Shown in pieces: positions 7,531-9,893 of a stretch of 64,000 bases of DNA (the first letter of the stretch is position 1; every line of letters starts with the position of its first letter). Source of the stretch: a virus; the UHGV virus genome UHGV-1483955, one strand, 5' to 3'. The notes beneath the pieces were generated by a model that made no database searches, had not been told where the DNA came from, and saw nothing but the letters and a program-made list of their open reading frames with translations. The position numbers were made by a program, and so were the translations under genes.

Positions 7531-8895
7531 ATGTCTGCATCCCCTCTTGAATCCATGCCAAATTCCCTTAGTGCAGAACAAGCTGTACTTGGTGGCTTAA
7601 TGCTTGATAACTGCCGCTGGGATGAAGTTGCAGATCGTATAGTTGCTGATGATTTTTATACCAGTGCTCATCGTGAAATTTTCAGTGAGATGGAGAGGTT
7701 ATTAAGTCATGGCAAACCGATTGATTTGATAACACTTGCTGAAGCACTTGAACAGAACGGTAAATTAGAACGCGCCGGTGGTTTTGCGTACCTTGCGGAG
7801 ATGTCAAAGAACACGCCCAGCGCGGCAAATATTTGTGCTTATGCGGATATCGTTCGTGAACGCGCGGTTGTTCGTGAAATGATTTCCGTCGCAAATGAAA
7901 TAGCCGAAGCTGGATATGCGCAGGATGGCAGGGGCAGCAATGAATTGCTGGATATGGCCGAGCGCCGCGTTTTTGAAATAGCTGAAAAACGACAAAAGAG
8001 CGGTAGTGGTCCAAAAGATATCGCCAGCATTCTCGATGCAACGGTATCTCGCATAGAAGAGTTGTTTCAGCGACCACATGATGGTGTAACGGGGCTTGAT
8101 ACGGGATTTACCGATATCAATAAGAAGACGGCAGGGCTTCAGCCGTCCGATCTCATCATTGTCGCCGCCCGCCCATCTATGGGGAAGACCACGTTTGCGA
8201 TGAATCTCGTCGAAAATGCCGCAGTTCGTAACGATAAGCCCGTATTGGTTTTTAGCCTTGAGATGCCGAGCCACCAGCTGATGATGCGCTCACTGGCTTC
8301 TCTTGCACGCGTTGATCAGACTCGTATTCGGACAGGGCAACTTAACGACGAGGATTGGGCGCGGGTTTCTGGCGCAATGGGTATTCTGTTGGACAAGCAG
8401 AATATTTTTATTGATGACTCAAGCGCCCTGACACCTACAGAGCTTCGTTCCCGCGCTCGTCGTGTTTATAAAGAAAATGGTGGTTTGAGCATGATTATGA
8501 TCGACTACCTGCAACTTATGCGCGTCCCCGAGCTGCAAGATAACCGAACGCTGGAAATTGCCGAGATTTCTCGCTCACTGAAGGCGTTGGCGAAGGAATT
8601 ACAAGTACCGGTGGTGGCATTGTCACAACTTAATCGATCGCTTGAACAGCGTGCGGACAAACGACCGGTAAATTCAGATTTACGTGAATCAGGAGCAATT
8701 GAGCAGGACGCAGACCTGATCATGTTTCTGTATCGCGACGAAGTTTATCACCCGGATAGCGAAATGAAGGGCATTGCCGAGGTAATTATCGGAAAGCAAC
8801 GAAATGGCCCAATTGGCACGGTGAGATTGGCTTTTAACGGCCAATACTCACGGTTTGATAACTATGCTGGTGCTGACTGGCAAGAGGATTATTAA
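7531..8895 (+). CDS. ban: DnaB-family replicative helicase
   Basis: 454 aa; Walker A GKTTFAMNL, DnaB-type C-terminal RecA-like domain; GGAG SD 5 nt upstream of ATG. Confidence 0.9.
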   Translation: MSASPLESMPNSLSAEQAVLGGLMLDNCRWDEVADRIVADDFYTSAHREIFSEMERLLSHGKPIDLITLAEALEQNGKLERAGGFAYLAEMSKNTPSAANICAYADIVRERAVVREMISVANEIAEAGYAQDGRGSNELLDMAERRVFEIAEKRQKSGSGPKDIASILDATVSRIEELFQRPHDGVTGLDTGFTDINKKTAGLQPSDLIIVAARPSMGKTTFAMNLVENAAVRNDKPVLVFSLEMPSHQLMMRSLASLARVDQTRIRTGQLNDEDWARVSGAMGILLDKQNIFIDDSSALTPTELRSRARRVYKENGGLSMIMIDYLQLMRVPELQDNRTLEIAEISRSLKALAKELQVPVVALSQLNRSLEQRADKRPVNSDLRESGAIEQDADLIMFLYRDEVYHPDSEMKGIAEVIIGKQRNGPIGTVRLAFNGQYSRFDNYAGADWQEDY

Positions 8896-9893
8896 TGCAA
8901 TGGAATGAGGAAAAGCCGATGAACATCCTGATCATTGGGCGAAAATTTGAAGCTATCAGTGATGTGAAAACATATACGGAAATGTGGGCTTATAACCTGG
9001 CCTGCGCCTTTAGTGAGGCAGGGGTAACATTGCAATACCATCGTCCATATTCCCCTGGCGTCGAAAGCCCGGAGGATTATGTTGAAGCTGTGTTGACTGC
9101 TGCGACCGCATGTTCTGCGAAGGCCATTTTGGCACCAGGATTGAGGTATTTTACTACGGTACCCAGGGAAATAGGCATGCAACTGTGTCGCCGATTCTCT
9201 GGATGGGTAGCCCAGGTATATGACGGTTCTATGCTGGATTCGGCACCAGTCGATATTACTTTTACTGTCCGCGATGATACCTGGCGGTACCTGGATAATC
9301 CCGGCAGGTTAGAGCGTCATAATCGTTTTAACAAACATGTTGGATGGGCAGCGAATCAGGAGCTGTTCCATCTGGAAACCCAAACGGACGATGTTCTGCG
9401 TATTTTTGTAGACCACGCTGCATTTGATGTTAGTGGTTTTGATCACTCCTTAAGTATCCTTATGAACCTTCAGCGTCTGACCGTTCCGTATGAGGCCAGA
9501 ACGTTGACTGATGACGGATTGGTTACCATTGATCCGGGGAATATTTCGGTAACTCCATACAGGCGGACGCCGGTGCCAGCAACCGAATTTGCAGCTGAAT
9601 TGCGTAAGAGTGACGTGTTTATCGTTACGCATCCCGAAAGCCTTGGATTAACTGTACTTGAGGCGGCAATGTGCGGGGCGTTGGTATTAACGCCTCCCGA
9701 TTGCCTTCCGCCAGATCGCTTGGCTTTGGTGAACCATATGGTTATCAAGTCGCGGATTGATTGGGATGAGGTTATTGCTCGCGTTGATCGCGTGAAAAAT
9801 GCTGAAAAGGTCCAGTGTCACACCTGGTCGGCAATTGCGGAAAAGATGCTTGAGACGTTTATCACGCAGAAACCGTCGTGCGGTAACGGATAA
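8895..9893 (+). CDS. GT-B fold glycosyltransferase-like protein (GT4-like)
   Basis: C-terminal ESLGLTVLEAAMCGALVL matches the GT-B E-x7-E donor-binding motif; start overlaps ban stop (TAATG). Confidence 0.6.
   Translation: MQWNEEKPMNILIIGRKFEAISDVKTYTEMWAYNLACAFSEAGVTLQYHRPYSPGVESPEDYVEAVLTAATACSAKAILAPGLRYFTTVPREIGMQLCRRFSGWVAQVYDGSMLDSAPVDITFTVRDDTWRYLDNPGRLERHNRFNKHVGWAANQELFHLETQTDDVLRIFVDHAAFDVSGFDHSLSILMNLQRLTVPYEARTLTDDGLVTIDPGNISVTPYRRTPVPATEFAAELRKSDVFIVTHPESLGLTVLEAAMCGALVLTPPDCLPPDRLALVNHMVIKSRIDWDEVIARVDRVKNAEKVQCHTWSAIAEKMLETFITQKPSCGNG

Follow-up and report, generated by a model that had tools for sequence, protein, structure and literature searches.

The dbn locus

The window analysed here is a 64,000-nucleotide stretch of the virus genome UHGV-1483955. 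The gene under study is an open reading frame of 332 amino acids at 8895..9893 on the plus strand, the presence of which was confirmed in the list of open reading frames. This gene is dbn ("downstream of ban") of phage P1. Over all 999 bases it is 98.3% identical to P1 (NC_005856 72659-73657), 97.0% to P7 and 97.5% to RCS47. Its product matches phrog_2518 over the full length (residues 1-332 of 332, E = 1.8e-239) and is encoded between ban and the baseplate gene 5, which places it in the P1 Dbn orthologue group. P1 Dbn (P1_gp078, YP_006544.1), P7 Glt and RCS47 Dbn are products of the same gene, with the same order ban–dbn–gene 5 and the same TAATG junction, and differ from the Dbn described here by only a few amino-acid substitutions. 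The upstream gene, ban (7531..8895, plus strand; P1 ban 71295-72659 maps here), encodes a DnaB-like replicative helicase, and gene 5 lies convergently downstream. Upstream of ban the window departs from P1 in having a gene for an SPFH-domain lipoprotein in place of plp-upl-tciABC, which leaves dbn unaffected. The GC content of dbn (0.488) is close to that of the window (0.486), so there is no sign of a recent foreign origin. As computed from the sequence, Dbn is soluble and acidic (pI 5.4) and has zero transmembrane segments.

Public databases already carry such labels for dbn: the P1 record has "possible glycosyltransferase", that of P7 has "glt", and RefSeq uses "GT family 4". The glycosyltransferase call is thus not new and, taken alone, restates public annotation. 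Viral-contig scans and plasmid searches for Dbn returned almost exclusively P1-like elements and added little context.

Start codon and transcription signals

An earlier note on this DNA described dbn as translationally coupled to ban, pointing to a TAATG overlap and to a Shine-Dalgarno sequence in the 3' end of ban. Both signals are present: ATG 8895-8897 overlaps the ban stop codon TAA (8893-8895) by one base, and the Shine-Dalgarno-like AAGAGGA at 8882..8888 (plus strand) lies 6 nt 5' of this ATG. The overlap was found in 77 of 83 P1-like loci (two with TGATG). In the other six, the ban-overlapping ATG opens a separate 101-codon open reading frame, the stop of which overlaps the ATG of Met9 (ATGA); the sequence 'ATGCAAYGGAA' in P1-like contigs of the L084 type is the beginning of this frame. 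The second in-frame start in the window, ATG 8919 (Met9), has its own Shine-Dalgarno-like GAGGA at 8907..8911 (plus strand), 7 nt upstream.

Because Dbn homologues begin at Met9 and six contigs have a separate open reading frame at the ban-overlapping ATG, ATG 8919 is better supported than ATG 8895 and is probably the native start. The gene proper would then occupy 8919..9893 on the plus strand (stop codon 9891-9893) and encode 324 aa, an assignment drawn from phrog_2518, the identity to P1, the AlphaFold2 model and Foldseek. The eight codons 8895..8918 (plus strand; MQWNEEKP), read as an N-terminal extension of the annotated protein from the starts of homologues, the P1-like contigs and a pLDDT of 62 over residues 1-10 of the AlphaFold2 model, are probably a remnant of, or an insertion site for, a separate small open reading frame rather than a piece of native Dbn. 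The correction from 332 aa to 324 aa is relevant to anyone expressing the protein. Of the proposed coupling, the overlap itself is therefore real, whereas the ATG that overlaps ban is probably not the one that starts native dbn. A transcript shared with ban, and ribosomes re-initiating 24 nt further on, are plausible. RNA folding at the ban-dbn junction was not above that of shuffled controls (z = 0.1), so structure-dependent coupling is unsupported.

In the P1 record, C1 operators stand ahead of two operons, that of ban and pmgN-Q. The C1-repressed promoter of ban would thus serve dbn as well, and ATG 8919 is the most likely point at which its translation begins. A promoter consensus scan found a single site inside ban, at 8258-8285, which is the predicted P2dbn of P1; with one site found against 3.7 expected, the scan gives no evidence for an internal promoter. 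Between the convergent dbn (plus strand) and gene 5 (minus strand), at 9914..9940, RNA folding detected an 11-bp GC-rich hairpin flanked by A/T runs (−18.3 kcal/mol, z = −3.35; none of 200 shuffled sequences reached this stability), which was missed by a simple terminator consensus scan and is likely a bidirectional terminator.

Predicted fold and conserved residues

The AlphaFold2 model of Dbn (pLDDT 87.9, pTM 0.85) shows alternating beta and alpha elements in two halves, and it has the two Rossmann-like alpha/beta domains with a cleft between them that characterize the GT-B fold superfamily. In a Foldseek search of the PDB, the top 50 matches were all GT-B proteins, mostly of GT4 with a few UDP-GlcNAc 2-epimerases. 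The best match was GlgM (E = 4e-10, TM 0.65), and others were sucrose-phosphate synthase, PimB', BshA and an LPS glycosyltransferase (5n7z); the top matches in BFVD were likewise all GT-B proteins, the first of them a Tupanvirus glycosyltransferase (E = 1e-17, TM 0.76/0.80). The description of the gene in the earlier note as GT-B glycosyltransferase-like is thus supported by the predicted model and by both searches, and P1 dbn, for which that note had allowed a known non-glycosyltransferase fold, is likewise predicted to be GT-B.

At the sequence level, similarity of Dbn to characterised glycosyltransferases is thin, being limited to about 90 C-terminal residues. The profile search proposed earlier was borderline: Pfam PF00534 (Glycos_transf_1) matched residues 229-315 only, and its score of 25.0 bits stays below the Pfam gathering threshold of 26.4. 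Within an alignment of 128 Dbn family members reaching down to 20% identity, PF00534 matched 43 at E < 0.01 (best 2.2e-6). NCBIfam gave marginal matches only. When the family profile was run against PDB sequences, glycosyltransferases came up only at E 0.18-0.8; the best matches, KtrA/RCK domains over residues 27-88, were judged to reflect generic Rossmann-like similarity and not homology. Kinship to WaaS or to the Kdo-transferase WaaA (GT30) was also considered and rejected, since the Dbn profile showed no similarity to either E. coli protein.

The E-x7-E motif reported for the C-terminus is present as ESLGLTVLEAAMCG, residues 248-261 (nt 9636-9677), in a helix of the C-terminal domain as in GT4 enzymes. 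The bare motif is at chance level, occurring once in Dbn and at least once in 72% of composition-preserving shuffles; it counts here because the GT4-like context is extended and both Glu residues are conserved. E256 is 100% conserved in the 128 family members, as are D173 and H174, and H246, E248, G251 and G261 are 99% conserved. In a comparison with the WaaG profile, the aligned stretch consists of the 54-column E-x7-E region only, and within it E248 and E256 align to WaaG E281 and E289. The family signature T-H-P-E-S-L-G-L-T-V-L-E-A-A-M-C-G, which contains His246, E248 and E256, is encoded at 9627..9677 (plus strand) and was defined from conservation, the WaaG alignment and PF00534. Given the invariant or near-invariant residues and the Glu pair that aligns with WaaG, Dbn is likely an active enzyme.

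Dbn also differs from the retaining GT-B enzymes of GT4 (WaaG, WaaB, PimA/PimB', MshA/BshA, GlgM and sucrose-phosphate synthase). It shares their two-domain fold in the predicted model, but identity is only about 10-14%, the matched structures are longer by about 50 residues, the Gly-Gly loop after the first strand is absent, and His246 stands two residues before the first Glu. The invariant Asp173-His174 pair, encoded at 9411..9416 (plus strand), directly follows the first beta-strand of the C-terminal domain in the model (residues 168-172) and appears to replace the Gly-Arg/Lys phosphate-binding motif of GT4, an equivalence with 'GR...K' that was set by secondary-structure order and not by three-dimensional superposition. 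With Asp-His in place of basic residues, the donor or the chemistry of Dbn may be unusual; R224 (84% conserved) could stand in for the basic phosphate-binding residue. The family profile retrieves only about 376 clusters at 50% identity and not the bulk of GT4, and on these profile data the Dbn family would be a distinct GT-B family.

These departures bear on a different reading, in which Dbn has a GT-B fold and is not a conventional NDP-sugar glycosyltransferase, acting instead in pyruvyl or glycerol-phosphate transfer, as an epimerase or hydrolase, or as a scaffold for PmgQ. The Asp-His pair found where GT4 has Gly-Arg, the PF00534 match under threshold, the family profile of 376 clusters separate from bulk GT4, the UDP-GlcNAc 2-epimerases among the fold matches, and the pyruvyl-transferase-like and cytidylyltransferase-like neighbours in environmental loci are all consistent with it. 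However, the E-x7-E helix is kept nearly invariant in its GT4-like context and the best fold matches are true glycosyltransferases; a purely structural role as a scaffold also fits poorly with how strongly polar residues are conserved. This reading is accordingly considered improbable.

Partner genes and gene neighbourhoods

Four further plus-strand genes of the window are relevant here. pmgO (15828..16490) encodes a DUF115/MptE-like protein of the WaaZ/Maf superfamily, assigned by tblastn with cassette neighbours, a weak Pfam MptE-like match, matches of its homologues to phrog_4603 and the P1 annotation. pmgP (16388..17014) encodes a second DUF115/MptE-like paralogue (phrog_2111; assigned by tblastn, Pfam and phrog). 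ppp (16996..17688) encodes a lambda-type Ser/Thr phosphatase (Pfam Metallophos and cassette comparison), and pmgQ (17685..18386) a GT-A-fold, GT8/GT77-like glycosyltransferase, recognised by alignment, model, Foldseek, and adjacency or fusion to Dbn homologues. The alignment of PmgQ shows an invariant D-L-D and a C-terminal His, and its model (pLDDT 94.4) was matched by Foldseek to AgtA, glycogenin, GlyE and LgtC. By tblastn with the cassette neighbours, the partner genes at 15828-18386 are 39-54% identical to genes of a cassette found in other phages.

This cassette has the contiguous order DUF115, DUF115, a gene of about 190 aa, Dbn-like and PmgQ-like, and was found in the Escherichia phages EP_H11 and IME392 and in the metagenomic loci L004, L005 and L175. 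Identities to P1 are 43-56% for Dbn, 45-54% for PmgP, 33-47% for PmgQ and 24-39% for PmgO. In these cassettes each gene directly follows the last, stop codons overlapping the next start, whereas in P1 dbn follows ban and ppp fills the slot that holds the ~190-aa gene and the dbn-like gene in the contiguous cassettes. The window has homologues of all four components (two DUF115, Dbn-like and PmgQ-like), but in the window and in P1 the four are not contiguous: some 6 kb, in which the tail/baseplate operon runs on the opposite strand, lie between dbn and pmgO-Q.

Elsewhere, pmgQ homologues lie directly downstream of Dbn homologues or are fused to them. The fusion is a 797-aa protein found in two contigs, with a Dbn-like part at residues 1-321 and a PmgQ-like part at residues 333-544. 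Among about 20 independent non-P1 contexts, about 17 have a DUF115/WaaZ-like gene, a PmgQ-like gene or both within two genes of the Dbn homologue. Besides the phage cassettes of L004, L005, L175 and EP_H11, Dbn homologues occur in bacterial polysaccharide loci of Colwellia (with Wza/Poly_export), of Brucella pseudogrignonensis (with Wzz-like, Wzm and Wzt) and of two further loci (L171, L172), and environmental phage contigs with a Dbn-like gene also carry pyruvyl-transferase and sugar-nucleotide genes. The link between Dbn and PmgQ is not obligatory: PmgQ was found in 705 plasmid records versus 473 for Dbn, and Cronobacter phage JK004 has pmgP-pmgQ and lacks dbn. In that phage ppp is also missing between pmgP and pmgQ. 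PADLOC models of defence and counter-defence gave zero matches for Dbn, PmgO, PmgP and PmgQ at E <= 0.01. All four genes were non-essential in CRISPRi and in-frame deletion studies (PMC10695390; PMC9024508), as expected for accessory functions.

The earlier note had proposed that a sugar transferase co-expressed with the replicative helicase could modify DNA, the virion or the host envelope. This was too broad, since the neighbourhoods speak against DNA and favour a multi-enzyme glycan pathway. For a DNA glycosyltransferase that puts sugars on P1 DNA as protection from restriction, one can cite the shared operon of dbn and ban and the GT-B fold common to DNA glycosyltransferases. The glycosyltransferase of HY126 (9iqz), a phage mentioned in a single paper found, on glycosylated 5-hydroxycytosine in viral DNA, was PDB match 7 (E = 8e-8), and the SP-15 glycosyltransferase was among the BFVD matches. 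Nevertheless, at about 12% identity this is generic fold similarity, no better than that to dozens of GT4 enzymes, and Dbn has no specific sequence relationship to the phage-encoded GT-B enzymes 9iqz and T4 alpha/beta-glucosyltransferases. The T4 and HY126 systems need base-modifying enzymes, whereas the approximately 20 Dbn neighbourhoods examined had no genes for base-hydroxylating or hydroxymethylating enzymes and held WaaZ-like, GT8-like, pyruvyl-transferase-like and exporter genes instead. No hypermodified base is known in P1. Ordinary restriction enzymes cut its DNA, and the phage relies instead on Dar proteins and methylation. A DNA acceptor is therefore regarded as very improbable. Glycosylation of tRNA queuosine was also considered, as the ban operon includes tRNA genes and GTDC1, the human queuosine mannosyltransferase, belongs to GT4; the neighbourhoods gave it no support, and the idea was dropped.

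Proposed function and possible acceptors

What is new here is the link of Dbn to PmgO, PmgP and PmgQ, which by homology and gene neighbourhood look like one glycan-building set. Most likely, Dbn belongs to a dispersed set of this kind acting on a non-DNA acceptor. The identity of the gene, its predicted fold, the conserved residues, the neighbourhoods and the fusion protein come from the present analysis, and dispensability comes from published work; from these we infer the catalytic activity, the donor, the joint action of the four proteins and the acceptor as follows. Dbn would be a soluble cytoplasmic, GT4-like enzyme with two Rossmann domains in a GT-B fold. In its C-terminal domain, the conserved T-H-x-E-S-x-G-x4-E-A-A-x-x-G helix would provide the contact to a nucleotide-activated sugar, and the N-terminal domain would present the acceptor to which the sugar is transferred. 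Together with PmgQ (GT8-like, GT-A) and the WaaZ/Maf-like DUF115 proteins PmgO and PmgP, it would make a short oligosaccharide.

The single best guess for the product is a glycan of the LPS-core or polysaccharide type on a host envelope glycolipid, because the fold classes match those of WaaG/WaaB, WaaO/WaaJ and WaaZ of the E. coli LPS core, which, following CAZy, we take to be GT4 enzymes, GT8 enzymes and a DUF115-type Kdo III transferase, respectively. The E. coli waa set thus includes the three enzyme classes also found in Dbn, PmgQ and PmgO/PmgP of P1. However, there is no orthology between the two sets, and in P1 the genes are dispersed. The DUF115 partners of Dbn homologues match the WaaZ models TIGR04437 and PF27901, with scores far below the cut-offs. 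Taken as a whole, a GT4-like Dbn acting in a four-protein set on a non-DNA acceptor, with the LPS-core or polysaccharide guess, is judged somewhat more probable than not. Some points weaken the envelope part. The acidic character of Dbn is unlike that of many membrane-associated GT-B enzymes, which weakens the case for a lipid-linked acceptor. Both operons are C1-repressed, which makes classical lysogenic conversion of LPS unlikely. The LPS core is the receptor of P1, and P1 re-adsorbs readily to K-12 debris, which would not be expected if the receptor were efficiently masked.

Nearly as likely as an envelope glycolipid is an acceptor that is a protein of the phage or the host. The corresponding alternative keeps the same enzyme and module and changes the acceptor alone, with Dbn and PmgO/P/Q putting a short glycan on a structural protein of P1 or on another protein. 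There is precedent for protein decoration in the glycosyltransferases of mycobacteriophages and giant viruses, and DUF115 includes the Maf flagellin glycosyltransferases. Homologues of PmgO occur in head/connector clusters of Pseudomonas D3-like phages, where two records say 'structural protein', and larger versions of the cluster are found in lytic environmental phages. The P7 record names pmgN-Q 'hdmA-D, head morphogenesis', and the P1 record has a late promoter for the pmgL-Q operon. Among the closest folds to PmgQ are AgtA, glycogenin and GlyE, all protein-glycan enzymes. Dbn itself is soluble and acidic, and the viral structure that it matches best is the Tupanvirus enzyme. The 'head morphogenesis' labels, however, reflect gene position only, and in bacteria the Dbn family is found at loci for polysaccharide export and not beside glycoprotein genes. 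Plaque formation was unaffected by the deletions, and the main text of an LC-MS/MS and SDS-PAGE study of the P1 virion contains no word beginning with 'glycos-' and leaves dbn, pmgO, pmgP and pmgQ unmentioned (PMC9024508). As a specific account, glycosylation of a virion or other protein is judged unlikely, though ahead of the non-conventional enzyme and DNA readings. The literature searched contained no functional study of Dbn or the PmgO/P/Q proteins, and none of the papers reported that P1 alters LPS, a virion glycan or DNA.

Returning to the glycan-building set, a bolder form of the proposal is that P1 carries an unrecognised four-enzyme glycan module spread over two C1-controlled operons, a phage 'mini-waa' that would serve either remodelling of the LPS core (the receptor) or virion glycosylation during lytic growth, with Dbn representing a clade in which an Asp-His / His-x-Glu site replaces the basic phosphate clamp. 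This form is offered tentatively, as somewhat less than an even chance. If the set is real, four genes of a model phage studied for 70 years, now listed as 'function unknown / putative morphogenetic', gain a shared role that can be tested. Should a modified LPS core be the product, P1 would be a simple system for phage-directed receptor remodelling. To our knowledge, phage virion glycosylation has so far been described mainly for mycobacteriophages; if the product is a virion glycan, the phenomenon would reach a classical coliphage, one that also serves for delivery.

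Identity and predicted fold of Dbn

The open reading frame at 8895-9893 (plus strand, 332 codons) is dbn ("downstream of ban"), its 999 bases sharing 98.3% identity with the phage P1 gene and 97% with that of P7. In a database search, dbn was found in 18 records of P1-like phages and 473 of plasmids; this carriage, together with the near-identity to P1 and P7, marks the window as a P1-like phage-plasmid. The earlier note had described the product as GT-B glycosyltransferase-like, an idea that is an existing putative annotation, since the P1 record reads "function unknown, possible glycosyltransferase", the P7 record "glt, putative glycosyltransferase" and RefSeq/PGAP "glycosyltransferase family 4 protein". 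Neither the gene nor its putative class is thus new; both were already on record. The PHROGs entry, phrog_2518, lists the function as unknown. The sequence features reported in the note were all confirmed in the window: the open reading frame, the ban stop codon TAA (8893-8895) sharing its last base with ATG 8895 to give TAATG, the Shine-Dalgarno-like AAGAGGA 6 nt upstream of this ATG, and the E-x7-E peptide ESLGLTVLEAAMCG at Dbn residues 248-261. An 11-bp hairpin (9914-9940; RNA fold −18.3 kcal/mol, z = −3.35), starting 21 nt past the end of dbn, constitutes a strong bidirectional terminator-like element between dbn and the convergent baseplate gene 5 (9940-10572, minus strand); a consensus terminator scan did not pick up this hairpin.

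The sequence evidence for Dbn as a GT-B glycosyltransferase is thin. The HMM check suggested earlier did return Pfam Glycos_transf_1, but under threshold (25.0 bits against a cut-off of 26.4 bits) and over residues 229-315 only. NCBIfam yielded only marginal matches, and the family profile retrieved glycosyltransferases from the PDB sequences only at E values of 0.18-0.8. The bare E-x7-E motif is uninformative, as 72% of shuffled Dbn sequences contain one. By HMM threshold, strict membership of GT4 therefore lacks support. The AlphaFold2 model of Dbn (pLDDT 87.9, pTM 0.85) consists of two alpha/beta halves, and its leading PDB structure matches are all GT-B: GT4 glycosyltransferases predominate, and a few UDP-GlcNAc 2-epimerases appear further down the list. 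Among the matches are GlgM (E = 4e-10), sucrose-phosphate synthase, PimB′, BshA, PimA and the LPS glycosyltransferase 5n7z. The leading matches among viral models are likewise all GT-B, the top one being a Tupanvirus glycosyltransferase (TM 0.76/0.80). The GT-B fold is supported by the model, and the earlier description was borne out to that extent, namely for the predicted fold.

A profile search against 1.84 billion cluster representatives returned only 376 family members, of which 274 had E ≤ 1e-10; almost every one measures 300-340 aa and is matched over its full length. The family is a small clade of its own, outside the bulk of GT4. Conservation was computed on 128 members with identity down to 20%. 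D173, H174 and E256 are invariant, H246, E248, G251 and G261 are 99% conserved, W151, F242 and T245 96%, D183 95%, D110 89%, D120 and R224 84%, and R84 82%. The pair E248/E256 aligns with E281/E289, the E-x7-E pair of WaaG. In the model, D173-H174 comes immediately after strand one of the C-terminal domain; to judge by strand order, this would place Asp-His where canonical GT4 enzymes carry the Gly-Arg/Lys diphosphate clamp. The strongly conserved polar residues at strand ends argue for Dbn being an active enzyme. With its Asp-His and His-x-Glu features, donor or chemistry may be unusual. Dbn has an acidic pI (5.4) and lacks a membrane segment.

Start codon and the junction with ban

The claim that dbn is translationally coupled to ban was found to hold in part: the overlap is real, but the overlapped ATG is a doubtful start. 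In almost all Dbn homologues the N-terminus reads MK(I/L)L(I)IG and lines up with annotated residue Met9, encoded by ATG 8919 and preceded by GAGGA at 8907-8911; residues 1-10 are the least confident stretch of the model. Among 83 P1-like loci compared, 77 have the ban-overlapping junction and six (IMG/VR contigs L084, L085, L086, L088, L089 and L093) carry a 101-codon frame between ban and dbn, located at 7699-8004 in L084. This frame opens at a ban-overlapping ATG (TGATG with the ban stop), its first 11 bases, ATGCAAYGGAA, are the same as at ATG 8895, and its stop codon overlaps the Met9 ATG (ATGA), which follows an AAGGAG site; Dbn is 324 aa long in these six loci. The shared start indicates homology between ATG 8895 and the start codon of another reading frame, and the eight extra codons of P1 Dbn look like a remnant of this frame or its insertion site. 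Its product begins MQRKLTKRNKNW; P1 and the window retain only the first ~11 bases and possibly the last ~15. Ribosomes terminating on ban could re-initiate at 8895, or 24 nt on at 8919. RNA folding of the ban-dbn junction gave no structure backing gated coupling, and a promoter scan found one promoter-like site inside ban, below the 3.7 expected by chance.

Genomic company of Dbn homologues

Outside P1-like elements, Dbn homologues rarely stand alone. By our count, a DUF115-like and/or PmgQ-like gene lies at most two genes away in ~17 of ~20 independent contexts. In the phage cassettes of contigs L004, L005 and L175 and of Escherichia phage EP_H11, two or three DUF115/MptE-like genes (matching phrog_4603, "alpha-2,3-sialyltransferase", and phrog_2111) are followed, sometimes after a ~190-aa gene, by the Dbn-like gene and then by a phrog_1962 gene, labelled "glycosyltransferase"; stops and starts overlap within these cassettes. 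In bacteria, including the loci L171 and L172, a WaaZ-like gene (PF01973, PF27901, TIGR04437) immediately precedes the Dbn-like gene. A Colwellia locus with this order contains a Wza/Poly_export gene, and on chromosome 3 of Brucella pseudogrignonensis the Dbn-like gene follows Wzz-like, Wzm and Wzt genes and a 734-aa glycosyltransferase gene. A PmgQ-like gene is directly downstream in L179, L180 and L183, and in L181 (2691-5084) and L182 (999-3392) a single 797-aa metagenomic protein comprises a full Dbn-like part (1-321) and a full PmgQ-like GT-A part (333-544). This fusion has ~250 further residues, and a second PmgQ-like gene lies ~2.5 kb downstream.

In L184, L185, L187 and L188, the Dbn-like gene has a gene for a 487-aa DUF115 protein one position upstream, and in L179 and L184-L188 it is flanked by genes resembling those for polysaccharide pyruvyl transferase and sugar-nucleotide synthesis. 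The long environmental contigs L179, L184, L185, L187 and L188 (39-182 kb) look phage-derived, with endolysin and RecA-like genes and long co-directional gene arrays. Their expanded cluster, containing the 487-aa DUF115 gene, two polysaccharide-pyruvyl-transferase-like genes, an NTP-transferase+HAD fusion and a cytidylyltransferase + mannose-6-phosphate-isomerase-like protein, points to a complex-glycan pathway encoded by phages.

The association of Dbn with PmgQ is not obligatory, 705 plasmid records having PmgQ versus 473 with Dbn. The dbn DNA search did not return Escherichia phage phi456, which keeps pmgO-Q; its expected ban-dbn stretch (L249, OR339795.1 44000-52500), ~9 kb upstream of pmgQ, is filled by IS elements and transposase fragments, so that it looks like a natural dbn-less P1 relative. 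In Stenotrophomonas jumbo phage RAS14 (L010, 4617-6275), and also in phage CM1, a 552-aa protein carries a Dbn-like part (19-318) and weak C-terminal alpha/beta-hydrolase matches; both genomes also hold a PmgQ-like gene ~12 kb off.

Candidate partners in the window and possible acceptors

Searching the window with cassette proteins (tblastn) gave matches at three places: pmgO (15828-16490, 39% identity), pmgP (16388-17014, 54%) and pmgQ (17685-18386, 47%). The pmgO and pmgP frames overlap by 103 nt (16388-16490). The P1 label of the pmg genes, "putative morphogenetic function", derives from position alone, and P7 names them hdmB-D. PmgO and PmgP match MptE-like/DUF115 weakly and are probably paralogous DUF115/MptE-like (WaaZ/Maf superfamily) proteins. 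PmgQ contains invariant D-L-D and H-G-x-P-R-P motifs in the alignment, and its model (pLDDT 94.4) matches GT-A enzymes of GT8/GT77 type (AgtA, glycogenin, GlyE and LgtC); it is confidently predicted to be a GT-A, GT8-like glycosyltransferase with DxD and His motifs. In P1, where dbn and pmgO/P/Q are dispersed, ppp (a lambda-type phosphatase gene) lies between pmgP and pmgQ, the slot of the Dbn-like gene in contiguous cassettes; in Cronobacter phage JK004, pmgP and pmgQ adjoin, without ppp or dbn. The P1 record places C1 operators before the ban-dbn and pmgN-Q operons and a late promoter before pmgL.

We propose that dbn, pmgO, pmgP and pmgQ form one split glycan-building module; this proposal and the corrected start of dbn are what the analysis adds. 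In the best-supported reading, Dbn would be an active, soluble GT-B sugar transferase that works with PmgQ, as the fusion protein and gene adjacency suggest, and with PmgO and PmgP, the four together assembling a short glycan. Of the targets offered in the earlier note (DNA, virion or host envelope, too broad a range), DNA is unlikely: Dbn resembles DNA glycosyltransferases only generically, a base-hydroxylating partner was missing from every neighbourhood examined, and no hypermodification of P1 DNA is known. The three fold classes of the P1 set recur among the LPS-core enzymes of E. coli: GT4 in WaaG/WaaB, GT8 in WaaO/WaaJ and DUF115 in WaaZ. This likeness and the bacterial relatives in polysaccharide export loci put a host envelope glycolipid or polysaccharide, e.g., an LPS-core-type glycan, slightly ahead as acceptor. 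Transfer to a virion or other protein, against which those export loci count, comes slightly behind; it would fit the DUF115 genes in head modules of D3-like phages, the late promoter of the pmgL operon, the protein-glycan enzymes among the closest folds of PmgQ and the acidity of Dbn.

Published experiments and an upstream accessory region

A literature search found no functional study of the Dbn, PmgO, PmgP, Ppp or PmgQ proteins. In CRISPRi knock-downs, dbn, pmgO, pmgP, ppp and pmgQ were non-essential for plaques on E. coli K-12 (PMC10695390). Each of the five has also been deleted in frame; only pmgA, B, C, G and R came out as newly essential in that work, and its main text mentions none of the five (PMC9024508). 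The split-module proposal is cheap to check, as mutants already exist. According to a preprint, an hfq mutant shows up-regulation of dbn at 20 min.

Upstream of ban, the window differs from P1 at 6097-7141 (plus strand), where plp-upl-tciA-tciB-tciC of P1 is replaced by a 78-aa hydrophobic frame followed by a gene whose 275-aa product has a lipoprotein-like signal peptide and weakly resembles HflK/HflC (SPFH/band-7). A tRNA-Asn/tRNA-Thr pair (5015-5090 and 5093-5168) lies upstream and a tRNA(CAT) gene (7169-7244) before ban. Here the same C1-controlled operon, that of ban, bears different accessory cargo.
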